Shown: positions 35,289 to 62,042 of the stretch, piece by piece
How positions within the stretch are numbered: position 1 is the stretch's first letter
How the letters are laid out: every line of letters begins with the position of its first letter
From: a virus
Lineage: Duplodnaviria > Caudoviricetes
DNA: 64,000 nt
Direction: 5' to 3' (one strand)
Virus record (IMG/VR): IMGVR_UViG_3300045015_000053
Position numbers and translations under genes: made by a program
Notes under the pieces: generated by a model
The model's database searches: none
Told to the model about the DNA's origin: nothing
What the model saw: only the letters and a program-made list of their open reading frames with translations

Positions 35289-35675
35289 ATGGCACAATCA
35301 TTCACGATGCGGTTCGCGTTCTTTTTTCCAGAACGTAGCAAAGGTATTTTCTGGAGCGGCCCGTATCAGGTTTACGCGAAGACGGTCAACGAGGCGAAGG
35401 ACATCCTGACGGACGCGGTTCTGAAAGAGACGCGGCGCGAAGACGGCCCGCTCTACCAGATCAGCCTCCTCGAATGCGAGAACCGGCTGAACCCCGGCCG
35501 CAACGAAGAACACTACTGTTGCATCAACATCGGCATCGCCGAAGAGATCCACAAGCGTGCGGTGTTCCGCGAGCAGTTCGAGTGGAAGAAATACCTCGAA
35601 AAGAGGTTCCCGAAGGGCGTACCCAAGATCAGGAGCTTGGACGCCGAATGGGACTGGGGCGATGGAGATCTGTGA
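35289..35675 (+). CDS. Hypothetical protein with RxLDxEW tail
   Basis: Ends PKIRSLDAEWDWGDGDL. Confidence 0.6.
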   Translation: MAQSFTMRFAFFFPERSKGIFWSGPYQVYAKTVNEAKDILTDAVLKETRREDGPLYQISLLECENRLNPGRNEEHYCCINIGIAEEIHKRAVFREQFEWKKYLEKRFPKGVPKIRSLDAEWDWGDGDL

Positions 35676-36415
35676 TGTCGCTTTACAGAACGTATACTGG
35701 CGCGGCGAACGAAGAACAGGCACTGCAAAGGACTTTCGCTCGGCGAGCCTACGCGATTTGGCTCGCCGAGGGCAAACCGCTTGGCAAGGAAGAAGAACAC
35801 ATGCGGCGAGCCAAAGAGGAATACGCGGAAGCTCAGGAAGCGATCCGGCTCAGAGAACTCGAAGAATCGAAAAAACGGAGATAGTCATGTTGTAGGTTAA
35901 CGATTGTCGCGAGGTGGTTTTCCACTTCAACAAGGCCAGCATCCAAGACCCCACGGTTCCGCCGTGGGTCGTCAAGGCGAAGGGCCAGACGTATTACGTC
36001 ATGCACGTTACCGCGTCGGCCCCGTGGTCTACGAAGGAAACCCCCGACAACGCCCACACGAAGGGCAGCATCAAGTTCAAGAACGTGGACGTGGTCATTG
36101 ACGACGAGAACTGCGCCGAGATCACCCCTGCGAAAGATTCGTCATGAAAGCCTTCAAATACGTCTTGTTGGTCTTGTTTGTCTTGTCCGTCTTCACAGGG
36201 ATGATTTTGGTTGTGCGGCAAGACAGCGTGAGACGATGGGACGCATACTACGAGAGACGAAATCAAGCAGTTCAACAGGCTTACGACGAAGGTCGGGCCG
36301 CTGCTTCGCAGGGCATTCCTGTGCAAGCATGCCCATACGGGACCAACAAAGCACACTCTGCCGAAGGCTGGAAACGCGGATGGATTGATGCTACTCAGTC
36401 GAAAGGTAAATAGTC

Positions 36416-36868
36416 ATGGGCGTCCATCGTAAAAGGCCAAGTGGCGAGCCGCGTCGGGCGTACTATCCGTCCGGCCCGTGGATCGACGGCATCAAGCCGC
36501 CGGGGTACGACGACCACCGGCCGGGCGTGGCGATTCCCGAACCGCCACCCCCGCCTTTGGGCAACCCCGACCCTGACAACTACCAGATCGTGAAGGCCGA
36601 AGAACACGGCAAGTGGTTGATCCTTCAGATGAAATACCCGGACTGCACGAATTTTGAAGGGCAGAAGATCCTCGTCTTCAAAGACACGACGTTGATCGAG
36701 TTGGTCAACCAGAAGTTGATCGACCCGCACTTCTTCAACGACAAGAAGTTCAAGTCCCCGGTCGCGCGGTTCGTGCCGACTGACGAAGGGTGGGCAATGG
36801 CTCAGATCTTCGTGAACGCGATGATCGCCAAAGCTGACAGCAAGGTTTCAGGAGCGACCAAGCGATGA
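36416..36868 (+). CDS. Hypothetical phage protein
   Basis: YPDCTNFEG.KILV...DPHF...SPVARF.P. Confidence 0.65.
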   Translation: MGVHRKRPSGEPRRAYYPSGPWIDGIKPPGYDDHRPGVAIPEPPPPPLGNPDPDNYQIVKAEEHGKWLILQMKYPDCTNFEGQKILVFKDTTLIELVNQKLIDPHFFNDKKFKSPVARFVPTDEGWAMAQIFVNAMIAKADSKVSGATKR

Positions 36869-37296
36869 CCCGCAAGGAACTTCAAGACATCGCCACGTCG
36901 TTACTGATGCGGCGAAACTTCATCGAGACTGGTACGGTCACGATGTCGGCGAACGACGCCGTGGCAGCGAAGAAACACAATCTGATCAAGGCTCTGGAGC
37001 CTCAGCAGAAAGAAACGATCCGGCGGCTGGAAAGTCTTCATGCAAAATTCCAGCGTGCGGCCTTTGAAAAGCCGGACGACGAAGATACAATGCCTTGATG
37101 ATCACCATCAATGCTGTTGTTAATGACGGACCAGTCCGACTCAGTGAACCGCAGTCCGTCGAAGTTTATGTGGGGGCAATGGAGTCTTACGAGGTTTTCC
37201 ATCTGGGCGGCGTGCGTTGGAAATTCCCGACCGGGATGGTCGAAGACCTTTTGACGGAATTCAAAAAGAAACGCGCCGAAGAGGATACATAATAGT

Positions 37297-37414
37297 TGAC
37301 TGGCTTAGGTGCCTAAGACAACTCGTGCCGCCTTCGGGCGACTCTGCGGTTCTGGTGGTTTCGACTACCGCTCACGCGGAACGGCATTATACGATTGTCA
37401 CCATCGAGCCGTCA
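37297..37414 (+). ncRNA. Multibranch structured RNA upstream of tRNA-Gly
   Basis: Closing TGAC-TGGCT/AGCC-GTCA; hairpins CTTAGG/CCTAAG and CGCC-TTCG-GGCG; T-loop-like TTCGACT. Confidence 0.45.
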
Positions 37415-37417
37415 CTT

Positions 37418-59661: not shown

Positions 59662-61396
59662 TGCGGTGAATGAGGCTGGAGGAAAGGCGTATAAGCTGTC
59701 TGACCGTCAGGCTCTTAGCCAGTACGTCGCGACGGGCTGCTTCAACAGCACCTACTACGTCTCTGCGGAGACGCAACTACAGACCGTCCTCGAACTCGCC
59801 AACAAGGTCGAGCCGGGGTTCCTCGCGCGTGCGGCCCTGTACGGACACCAGAAGTCGTACATGAAGGACGTGCCGGCGTTGCTGGCGGCGGTACTCGCGT
59901 CCCGCGACGAGAAGACGCTGAAGAAGGTGTTCTCGAAGGTGATCGATTCGGGGAACATGCTGCGCAACTACGCACAGATGATCAAGAGCGGCGTGACCGG
60001 CCGCAAGTGCCTCGGTACGGCCAGCCGCAAGCTGGTCGGCAAGTGGTTCAGCGACCGCACCCCGGAGAACGTGTTCCACCAGAGCATCGGGAACGACCCG
60101 ACGTTGGGCGACGTGATCCGCATGGCGCACGCGAAGCCGGCGTCCCCGCAGCACGCGGCACTGTTCGCGTACCTGACCGGCGCAAAGGTCGAGACGGTCG
60201 AGGGGCGTAAGCTCCTGCGGACCCCGTACCTCGATGAGTCGAAGGTGCAGAAGTACCTCGAACACCCGTTCGACAACCTGCCGGAACTGGTGAAGCAGTT
60301 CGAGGCGTGGAAGGCTGACAACAGCCAGACGATGCCGAAGCTGAACTTCCGGTTCCTCGACGGCGCGGGCAAGCTCACTCTGGACCAGTGGAAGGAGATC
60401 GTTCGCAACGCGAACTGGCTGACCACGCTGAAGTCGCTTCAGTCGTGGGCGCGGCGCGGCGTCTTCGCCGACAAGGACATGACCAAGCTGGTTGCCGACC
60501 GGCTGCGTAACCCGGAACTGGTGAAGAAGGCCCGCGCCTTCCCGTACCAGATCATGATGGCGTACCTCGCGACGGACGCCCCGTCGCAGTACACCACCAA
60601 CTGGGGCCGCGCGTCCTCTTCGGAGGCAACGCCGGTGCCGCCGGAAGTCAAGAACGCACTTCAGGACGCGATGGAAGTCGCGACCCAGAACGTTCCGAAG
60701 ATGTCGGACGACGCGGTCTACGTCTGCCCGGACGTATCCGGCAGCATGTCGAGCGGTTCCGTCACGGGCAACCGTGGCACGGCAACCTCCCGCGTGCGGC
60801 CAATCGACGTGGCGGCACTGATGGCGGCGTGCGCCCTGCGTACCAACCCGAACGGCGAGGTGATCCCGTTCGAGGGGGCGGTGGTAGACGTGAACCGCAT
60901 CCGGCTCAACAGCCGGGACAGCGTCATGACGAACGCCGAGAAGCTGTCCAAGATCGGCGGCGGCAGCACGAACTGTGCCGCTCCCCTGCACCTTCTGAAC
61001 CAGCGGAAGGCGAAGGGCAAGGTCGTCATGTACATCTCCGACTACGAGTCGTGGGTGGACACCGGAACCGCCGCTCGCTACGGCAGCGGGGCTGCGGACA
61101 TGCTCGCGGAGTGGGAGATCTTCAAGAAGCGGAACCCGGACGCGAAGCTGATCTGCATGGACATGACCCCGCGTACCACCGCGCAGGTCACGACCCGGAA
61201 GGACATCCTTCAGGTCGGCGGGTTCAGCGACAACGTGTTCAACGTGGTGGACTCGTTCCTCCGTGCGAACGACAGCGAGGACTACTGGGTCAAGCTGATC
61301 GAAAGCATCGACCTCGACGCGCCGGTTGACACCCGGCCGGCGAAGGCCGAGGCGTCGGAAGAAGACGTTCCGTTAGCCGAAGCCGTGGAGGAATAA
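59603..61396 (+). CDS. rsr: Ro60/Rsr RNA-binding protein (TROVE + vWA)
   Basis: NEAGG.AY.L....AL.QY..TGCFN.TYY, MKDVPALL, PYQ.M.AY, MIDAS-like DVSGSMS, SDYESW, QVGGFSD.VF. Confidence 0.92.
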   Translation: MANKNLFKSKSPLANLKPCNAVNEAGGKAYKLSDRQALSQYVATGCFNSTYYVSAETQLQTVLELANKVEPGFLARAALYGHQKSYMKDVPALLAAVLASRDEKTLKKVFSKVIDSGNMLRNYAQMIKSGVTGRKCLGTASRKLVGKWFSDRTPENVFHQSIGNDPTLGDVIRMAHAKPASPQHAALFAYLTGAKVETVEGRKLLRTPYLDESKVQKYLEHPFDNLPELVKQFEAWKADNSQTMPKLNFRFLDGAGKLTLDQWKEIVRNANWLTTLKSLQSWARRGVFADKDMTKLVADRLRNPELVKKARAFPYQIMMAYLATDAPSQYTTNWGRASSSEATPVPPEVKNALQDAMEVATQNVPKMSDDAVYVCPDVSGSMSSGSVTGNRGTATSRVRPIDVAALMAACALRTNPNGEVIPFEGAVVDVNRIRLNSRDSVMTNAEKLSKIGGGSTNCAAPLHLLNQRKAKGKVVMYISDYESWVDTGTAARYGSGAADMLAEWEIFKKRNPDAKLICMDMTPRTTAQVTTRKDILQVGGFSDNVFNVVDSFLRANDSEDYWVKLIESIDLDAPVDTRPAKAEASEEDVPLAEAVEE

Positions 61397-61413
61397 CCGT
61401 CTAAACAACGGAC

Positions 61414-61444
61414 AGACCGGCGGGATGGCCCGCCGGTCTTTTTG
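61414..61444 (+). terminator. Intrinsic terminator after rsr
   Basis: AGACCGGCGGG-ATGG-CCCGCCGGTCT-TTTT. Confidence 0.85.
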
Positions 61445-61775
61445 TTTACCGATGGCCCCAACCGTACCCTGAGATGCAGTGAGTGCCACGTTGGACGGTG
61501 TATAACCGCCCGCTGTGTTCGCCGACGACTTTGAATGTGCCATCCTCGAACGACCCGTCTTCTTCGTTCGGACCCTGGACCCGGATGCACCACTCGCCCG
61601 TTCCGTTTACTTGCAGACGTTCTCCTCCACTGACGTTTTCGATTACCGTGTCGTAGATGCAGGCCATGATCTGTCTCCGTTAGTGGCGGGCGAAATGCCA
61701 GCCTACAAGATAAACGATTGGCCGTTACAAGAAAATGGCGGGTATAATCTCGACTATACTTAGTAGGGGGTCGTC

Positions 61776-62042
61776 ATGTGGGACGAAGACACCGCTGAGT
61801 CTGACAATGTTTACAACCAGCCGCTTTTCAATCCGTACTTGAAACAGCACGCTAAGGCTCGTATGGACTCTTACCGAAAAGAACTTGAGAGTTCCTATCG
61901 GGGTGCGGAGAACGGTTACTTCACGGAAGCGGAATTGAACAAACTGGCTTCTCAGATCGGTTCGGTGGCAACCGGACTTGACAACCAGCCCAAGAAAAAG
62001 AAACTGGTTATGCGCAATCTTGATGACGATTGGCAAGCCTAA
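61776..62042 (+). CDS. Small protein with RxLDDDW tail
   Basis: TATAAT upstream; ends LVMRNLDDDWQA. Confidence 0.6.
   Translation: MWDEDTAESDNVYNQPLFNPYLKQHAKARMDSYRKELESSYRGAENGYFTEAELNKLASQIGSVATGLDNQPKKKKLVMRNLDDDWQA

Follow-up and report, generated by a model that had tools for sequence, protein, structure and literature searches.

A conserved acidic tag on small proteins of huge phages, many of them copied pieces of larger proteins

Phages and cells route many proteins through a single machine by means of an address or docking peptide that these proteins have in common, as in T4 head loading, encapsulins and the adaptors of ClpX. The T4 capsid targeting sequence (IPI-III, Alt) is N-terminal and ends in an [LI]xE protease site that removes the sequence. 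Encapsulin cargo peptides, which are Gly/Ser/Leu-rich with a GSLxIGSLK-type consensus, are read by a shell protein of the HK97 fold, the fold also of the Gp23 capsid protein. SSB (DDDIPF) and T7 gp2.5 and gp4 have a disordered tail whose tip, acidic and with an aromatic residue, brings partners to a hub. In SspB and RssB a flexible leash ends in a peptide that binds ClpX at its zinc-binding domain (PMC7226468). Here we analysed a window of 64,000 nucleotides (G000:73123-137122) from a 188,369-bp IMG/VR record of a huge phage from a lake (IMGVR_UViG_3300045015_000053, here G000), in which six small proteins end in a common acidic peptide, hereafter the tag. CheckV rates the record as 37% complete, which makes it a fragment of a phage of ~0.5 Mb, and a protein look-up placed the same proteins also on a 475,914-bp contig. 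The tag is a conserved motif, portable between proteins and carried behind a basic linker; we consider it likely to be a short linear docking motif for one common reader. Finding that reader would assign a function, all at once, to a considerable share of the ‘dark’ proteins of huge phages.

A common tag on six proteins of the window

A preliminary description of the window, made from its letters alone, had reported six C termini with a shared motif. A six-frame scan recovered all of them, on the + strand and at the same places: LD[DA][DE]W occurs six times, every copy fits the stricter form [IML]-R-x-L-D-[DA]-[DE]-W, and every copy ends 1–7 residues ahead of a stop codon. The protein ends are IRSLDAEWDWGDGDL (stop at 35675), MRSLDDEWES (57139), IRDLDDEWES (57444), MRDLDDDWFS (57979), LRNLDDDWE (58662) and MRNLDDDWQA (62042); we refer to these carriers, in order, as P1–P6 (Table 1). 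The Pro/Lys-rich linker of the earlier account is borne out by a Lys/Arg/Pro-rich stretch ahead of the tag in each of the six. Scanning six frames of the entire 188,369-bp record, as had been recommended, revealed no LD[DA][DE]W beyond these six. Letting F or Y replace W surfaced a seventh copy, YRSLDDDF, which is internal, 33 residues ahead of the stop codon of a 208-aa protein just past the window (G000 141403-142029). This carrier begins with a hydrophobic helix and continues with a coiled coil and a Pro-rich basic region; the motif comes next, and then an acidic run and a basic run. The tag in this phage takes the form phi-R-[SDN]-L-D-[DA]-[DE]-[WF], with six of the seven copies lying within 12 residues of the C terminus.

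The recurrence of the tag is far beyond chance. Across 200 dinucleotide shuffles, the mean number of LD[DA][DE]W matches was 0.155, and none of the shuffles placed a match within 7 residues of the end of any open reading frame (ORF) of at least 50 aa. Codons of the tag vary across the seven copies at most positions (Arg AGG/CGG/CGT/CGC/AGA; Leu TTG/TTA/CTC/CTG/CTT; Ser AGC/TCC/AGT), and the 60 nt 5′ of the tag are 15–40% identical between copies. Because the codons differ and the upstream DNA is unrelated, the copies reflect conservation of the peptide and not a DNA repeat, in agreement with the synonymous differences noted previously. Nothing but the recurrence itself speaks for chance, a DNA repeat or a mobile-element scar that supplies a common reading-frame end; the shuffles exclude chance, codons differ nearly throughout with unrelated flanks, and tails of orthologues change synonymously (see below), which together refute this explanation and leave it a negligible probability.

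When bound, the tag is probably a short helix, acidic and amphipathic, that presents phi, I/L and W. A helix N-cap typically has S, T, D or N ahead of two or three acidic residues, a pattern that the S/T/D/N at position 3 and the acidic residues after it would fit.

Table 1. Tag carriers and neighbouring features in the window. Positions are those of the window; carrier lengths rest on likely starts.
Feature	Position	Strand	Description
P1	35289..35675	+	128 aa, no known family; tag IRSLDAEW 35628-35651, then DWGDGDL
P2	56954..57139	+	61 aa, no Pfam family; tag MRSLDDEW 57107-57130; stop overlaps ATG of P3 (ATGA)
P3	57136..57444	+	102 aa; copy of ~70 N-terminal residues of capsid protein, linker, tag IRDLDDEW 57412-57435
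P4	57770..57979	+	69 aa; tag MRDLDDDW 57947-57970
P5	58120..58662	+	180 aa; beta-rich domain 1-155, Pro/Lys linker, tag LRNLDDDW 58633-58656
P6	61776..62042	+	88 aa; tag MRNLDDDW 62010-62033; 12 nt upstream of clpS
Possible capsid-derived mini-gene	40113..40433	+	106 aa; weak evidence, membership uncertain
ClpS-like phage adaptor	62055..62399	+	PF02617, E 2e-19; context only

No Pfam or PHROG family was assigned to any of the six window carriers. An AlphaFold2 model of P5 (pLDDT 87.5) has a confident beta-rich part at residues 1–155 and a low-confidence tail; its fold has no match in the PDB or AlphaFold DB and sub-threshold matches only in the ESM Atlas. The carrier genes sit among tRNA, Ro60, ClpS and metabolic genes, outside the head module. 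Positions 497-55391 of the window also contain thirty tRNA genes scattered between the small genes; several are present in duplicate (Lys, Asp, Asn, Trp, Ile, Pro).

The tag in orthologues and in other huge phages

P1 has four orthologues (56–74% identity), all of which retain [FIY]R[SND][LIV]D[AD]xW; none departs from R, D and W, even where the segment ahead of the tail is deleted. Relative to two of the orthologous genes, the tail codons of P1 have changed synonymously while the peptide is retained. For P5, 48 relatives were found among 1.84 billion cluster representatives. Close relatives (36–61% identity) have a basic Pro-rich linker followed by [YWI]R[ST]IDD[DE](W), a second group has the tail R[DES]I[FYH]E[DEP]F..W, and distant relatives of 200–250 aa (within P0022-P0049) have another common, strictly C-terminal tail, [DN]Wxx[EYQ]GF-COOH, possibly the docking tag that a different lineage attaches to this domain. 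Since these tails fall into distinct classes, the P5 domain family carries exchangeable tails. R and D are invariant in an alignment of 17 tails. The docking proposal of the preliminary description had been staked on conservation in orthologues, and survives the comparison: P1 orthologues and close P5 relatives keep the motif.

Relatives of P1 and P5 are located on short contigs, which bear no additional tags, and no P5 relative was found in cultured phages. Single-sequence locus scans with Ro60 and P5 returned no relatives, and alignment-based scans of IMG/VR and metagenome contigs returned one distant untagged locus only. We also searched IMG/VR with back-translated tag patterns. A tag of the same build was found on other huge-phage records with a GC content of 45–53%, at protein ends such as ...KKKPKYRSIDDDWMPPW, ...KVKQYRSIDDEWEQS, ...RRYRSIDDE, ...PPRYRSIDDEWETSQW and ...KKKILPRSIDDDWQVSRFD, these being on fragments of 45–51% GC. 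The wider consensus is phi-R-[ST]-[IL]-D-D-[DEP]-(W) after a Lys/Arg/Pro linker. Relatives read phi-R-[ST]-I-D-D-[DEP]-(W), so that the window motif is a local variant with L for I and S/D/N for S. The strings YRSIDD, RSIDDPW and SIDDEW were not found in the literature searched.

One of these records, G008, spans 532,729 bp and is rated 100% complete. The tag pattern has 14 matches there as against 1 for the reversed pattern, and a six-frame census of R[STRN][IL]D[DA][DEP] identified ~28 ORFs, compared with 1 in reversed peptides. These carriers amount to ~4% of ~750 genes, and most consist of a K/R-rich linker followed by YRSIDD[DEP]W. In 25 of 28 the tag lies within 12 residues of the C terminus; it is internal in two and N-terminal in one. 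Such freedom of placement (C-terminal, internal or N-terminal) is in keeping with a linear motif within disordered sequence, and not with a carboxylate-anchored ligand or a cleavage site. The tag is absent from the complete genome of Myxococcus phage Mx1, the nearest cultured relative (Ro60 41% identity), in which the small proteins around rsr have no common tail.

Tagged mini-genes are often in tandem, with the tag codons running into the next ATG (G008 517793-518784 and 351043-351617; window 56954-57444), which suggests translational coupling and local duplication. A further record encodes an 81-aa tagged CxxC...CxxCxGxG zinc-finger mini-protein (G003 57296-57541; L082:299-541:-) with weak matches to the DnaJ central domain, Lar and anti-TRAP.

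Compared with the described address peptides, the tag is like the T4 capsid targeting sequence in being one short peptide on unrelated proteins of a Gp23/S77-type phage, some of them head-derived. It differs in being mostly C-terminal both here and in G008, in not being confined to head-related carriers and in reading [LI]-D-D-[DEP]; many tagged proteins end at ...RSIDDE, so that cleavage would remove nothing. It shares with encapsulin cargo peptides a C-terminal position after a flexible linker on unrelated proteins, but is acidic with a Trp, no shell gene is present among the annotated neighbours, and packaging of the carriers would be hypothetical. The SSB and T7 tips are likewise acidic, aromatic-containing and on a disordered tail, but need a terminal aromatic residue and a free carboxylate and occur on one protein; the tag is found on many carriers, tolerates 0–33 or more following residues, and its Trp is followed by 1–7 residues or is absent. 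The carriers are not SSBs, and the tag resembles neither the SSB tip nor the clamp motif to which it had been likened. Resemblances to the sigma-70 C terminus (LRSFLDD), the MazE tail, Hsp70 IEEVD, the acidic-Trp motif of WASP and the W-acidic motif of kinesin were also considered.

Carriers that copy pieces of larger proteins

The carriers had been described as unrelated, and among themselves they are; P3, however, copies the N terminus of a Gp23-type major capsid protein. Its residues 2–71 align by BLASTP with residues 5–74 of a full-length capsid protein from another record, G004 (45% identity, E 2e-17), and it is 51% identical to the G008 capsid protein. Two carriers from other records give partial matches to the Gp23 family (PF07068; profile positions 132–199 and 301–348 of 376, E ~1e-17). 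In G004, 5 kb from the full-length capsid gene, two adjoining mini-genes copy C-terminal and middle pieces of it, and both are tag-ended. G008 contains seven capsid-piece mini-ORFs, covering residues 1–58, 55–102, 259–312, 309–417, 318–370, 402–442 and 436–463, at no more than 88% identity to the parent; six of the seven bear the tag (hypergeometric P ~1e-8).

Capsid protein is not the only source. One G008 carrier copies a piece of a gp21-type prohead protease (39% identity over 124 aa), whose parent in the same genome (Peptidase_S77, E 2e-28) is encoded next to the capsid gene. Another copies a piece of the PrkA C-domain (PF06798 positions 142–206, E 4e-10), and a third contains a SpoVR-like piece with a weaker match. 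No full-length PrkA is encoded by the complete G008, and a carrier can thus copy a protein that its own phage lacks. The present phage has a complete PrkA/DUF444 (YeaH)/SpoVR trio, normally a bacterial stress module (G000 5316-10887; L033). In the window, the ORF at 40113-40433 was detected by tblastn with residues 336–377 of the G008 capsid protein (43% identity, E 0.001). It holds a 16-residue near-copy of a capsid segment between K/P-rich linkers, then RRKYRHRFDS, at best a degenerate tag.

Within one clade of huge phages, dozens of small proteins unrelated to each other thus share the tag, which is preferentially attached to copied pieces of larger proteins, and many carriers are fragments by nature. 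As far as the literature searched shows, the link of fragments of capsid protein, prohead protease and PrkA to such a tag is new. It suggests molecular mimicry as a mode of action, which could be tested with peptides and a few cloned genes. There is a precedent for a short piece of a Gp23-type capsid protein that is active alone, namely the Gol peptide of T4 gp23 in EF-Tu/Lit exclusion. The G008 carrier that copies capsid residues 55–102 covers what we take to be the region homologous to Gol, and tag-bearing phages encode their own EF-Tu. Unlike the carriers, Gol is part of the full-length capsid protein and not a separate tagged gene; no Lit-like partner came to light here, where no search was aimed at one.

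Under the docking reading, each carrier would be assembled from modules: a head piece that varies, a leash that is disordered and rich in Lys/Arg/Pro, and the constant tag. The head piece would most likely bind whatever its parent protein binds, and the tag would tether the carrier, together with the partner it has bound, to a single conserved reader. From the shared tag and the copied pieces we infer one reader for all carriers and mimicry by the fragments. The proposal of the preliminary description that the tag docks on a common hub is strengthened in its general form by portability, the flexible basic linker, conservation in orthologues and recurrence in other huge phages, while none of the hubs that it named is supported. 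If the partner is identified, so short and portable a tag could become a protein-tethering tool in bacteria.

Several points weigh against tethering to a common reader. The record covers only 37% of this genome. Window carriers other than P3 have no detectable parent protein in the sequence available; with P3 alone having one, the notion of a mimic fragment is not general. Copying its own capsid protein and protease would bring the phage no obvious benefit under tethering. That the tag is nearly invariant from phage to phage could also be due to another function, for example that of a degron read directly by a protease. Such a degron would let a protease of the host or the phage destroy the carriers at a set time and so limit the lifetime of potentially dominant-negative fragments. 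The terminal, disordered location of the tag and the Clp components of the phage are consistent with this, and long-lived copies of assembly proteins would presumably be harmful. We nonetheless consider it improbable, given that acidic C termini are poor degrons for the ClpX pore (the ssrA-DD variant resists ClpXP), that the tag also occurs at internal and N-terminal positions, and that the degron would leave unexplained why such fragments are kept.

A more elaborate and rather unlikely possibility takes the fragments themselves as the point of the system. Dozens of mini-genes would each copy a signature piece of a conserved protein, be it the phage's own capsid protein, its prohead protease or even a protein that it does not encode (PrkA), fused to one address peptide. 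The pieces might be baits or decoys for host capsid sensors, for assembly intermediates of competitor phages or for partners of the host PrkA pathway, and the tag might pass what they have bound on to one phage machine, for instance ClpX(P), which would remove or sequester it. If true, this would be a natural modular system for targeted degradation or decoying.

Candidate readers of the tag

We compiled a Pfam inventory of ~80 of the larger proteins encoded in the 188 kb. It includes ClpX, a ClpP-family protein, ClpS, DnaJ, a sigma factor, EF-Tu, a Pol III alpha that appears split, PrkA/YeaH/SpoVR, a PARP-WGR protein, a GYF_2 protein and a stand-alone PDZ protein. Common to G008 and this phage are ClpX (54%), ClpS, Ro60, sigma, EF-Tu and the capsid protein, but G008 has no homologue of the PDZ, DnaJ, GYF or ClpP-like proteins; because G008 is complete and tag-rich, none of these four can be the general reader. 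The best candidates are ClpX, with its unusual zinc-binding domain, and a head-assembly component, which we keep equally open because several carriers derive from head proteins. Granted docking on a single reader, there is roughly an even chance that it is some other phage or host protein; a head-assembly component is a reasonable minority candidate, and the phage ClpX zinc-binding domain a somewhat fainter one.

A head reader would be part of the prohead, be it the scaffold, the portal or the inner face of the Gp23-type capsid protein, and the head would take up tagged proteins inside or on its surface. In line with such an address, carriers include pieces of the capsid protein and of the S77 protease, both of which reside in the prohead, a near-identical tag occurs in phages whose capsid proteins are 88% identical, and the peptide is C-terminal on a flexible linker as in encapsulin cargo. 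Yet the PrkA- and SpoVR-like pieces and the membrane-anchored coiled-coil carrier are not head-related, the carrier genes are placed away from the head module, and no protease site precedes or follows the tag. A search for a promoter-like k-mer common to the carrier genes and head genes of G008 found none. On balance, head loading is not the likely role.

The phage ClpX is genuine (G000 157716-158993; L038:3716-4990), matching E. coli ClpX with E 5e-124; its pore loop is intact, and an MGF loop for ClpP docking is present. Its N-domain has both CxxC pairs of the zinc-binding domain and a clade-specific 12-residue insertion; it is kept in four relatives and, in variant form, in G008. If the tag docked on this domain, the carriers would act as adaptors that deliver targets for unfolding or degradation. 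The build of the carriers is SspB-like, as seen in the tail alignments and the P5 model, with a separate binding domain, a flexible linker and a short conserved C-terminal peptide. ClpX with a zinc-binding domain at its N terminus is present in both this phage and the tag-rich G008 and absent from the tag-free Mx1, and this phage also has ClpS and a ClpP-family gene (G000 11354-12043; L033). Against this, the tag is acidic with a Trp whereas the SspB end, LRVVK, is basic and hydrophobic, with only phi-R-x-phi in common. In addition, dozens of carriers per genome bear the tag as opposed to the one or two adaptors, the co-occurrence is based on three lineages, and G008 lacks a match to the ClpP-like gene. 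ClpX binding of the tag is thus a candidate only, and one that we regard as doubtful. ClpX was not found in the other tag-bearing records, which as 3–34% fragments are uninformative either way. A complex prediction with two phage ClpX N-domains, zinc and a 30-residue tail scored 0.00 without controls and likewise bears neither way. No tmRNA-type tag or SspB homologue was found in the 188 kb.

The preliminary description had placed five of the carriers around rsr and clpS, and five of the seven do lie within 5 kb of one or the other, which would suit the phage Ro60 (through its vWA/MIDAS site) or ClpS as reader. Both genes are shared with G008, and MIDAS sites bind acidic peptide ligands. The clustering is no general rule, however, as the G008 carriers are scattered across 500 kb, mostly far from either gene. 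Moreover, Mx1 has a 41%-identical Ro60 but neither the tag nor a common tail near rsr, which argues against Ro60 as the hub, and ClpS reads free N termini; the N-degron pocket residues NDD and H are present, by eye, in the ClpS-like protein at 62055..62399. We consider either protein very improbable as the reader.

Lastly, PDZ domains bind C-terminal peptides, and the stand-alone PDZ protein (window 45719-46099, +; 126 aa, PF13180 E 1e-9) is found alongside a tag-bearing orthologue of P1 in one relative and is absent from the tag-free Mx1. This protein has a clear signal peptide and its only orthologue also starts with a typical one, which implies export, whereas the soluble carriers, by inspection, have none. 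With carriers and PDZ protein in different compartments, final tail residues that vary (S, E, A, L and others), a motif that is sometimes internal or N-terminal, and no homologue in G008, we reject the PDZ protein as the reader, a role for which its chances are slight in the extreme. One related phage has kept it. Phages seldom export a PDZ protein, and this one might act on the sensing of C-terminal peptides in the periplasm.

Three other features of the record were noted. A GYF_2-repeat protein of 296 aa with a possible membrane helix (G000 142819-143709; L037:6821-7708:-), which has no homologue in G008, adjoins the seventh carrier and an HNH endonuclease. DNA polymerase III alpha appears to be divided between two genes, PHP/N-terminal and finger/HhH (G000 12318-13829 and 19258-22110; L033, L034), ~5 kb apart with opposite-strand genes between them. 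A protein with WGR and PARP catalytic domains (G000 164135-165715; L038:10135-11712) is 54% identical to its counterpart in G008, and three relatives keep its gene in synteny, with the phage sigma factor and an HD-domain protein next to it.

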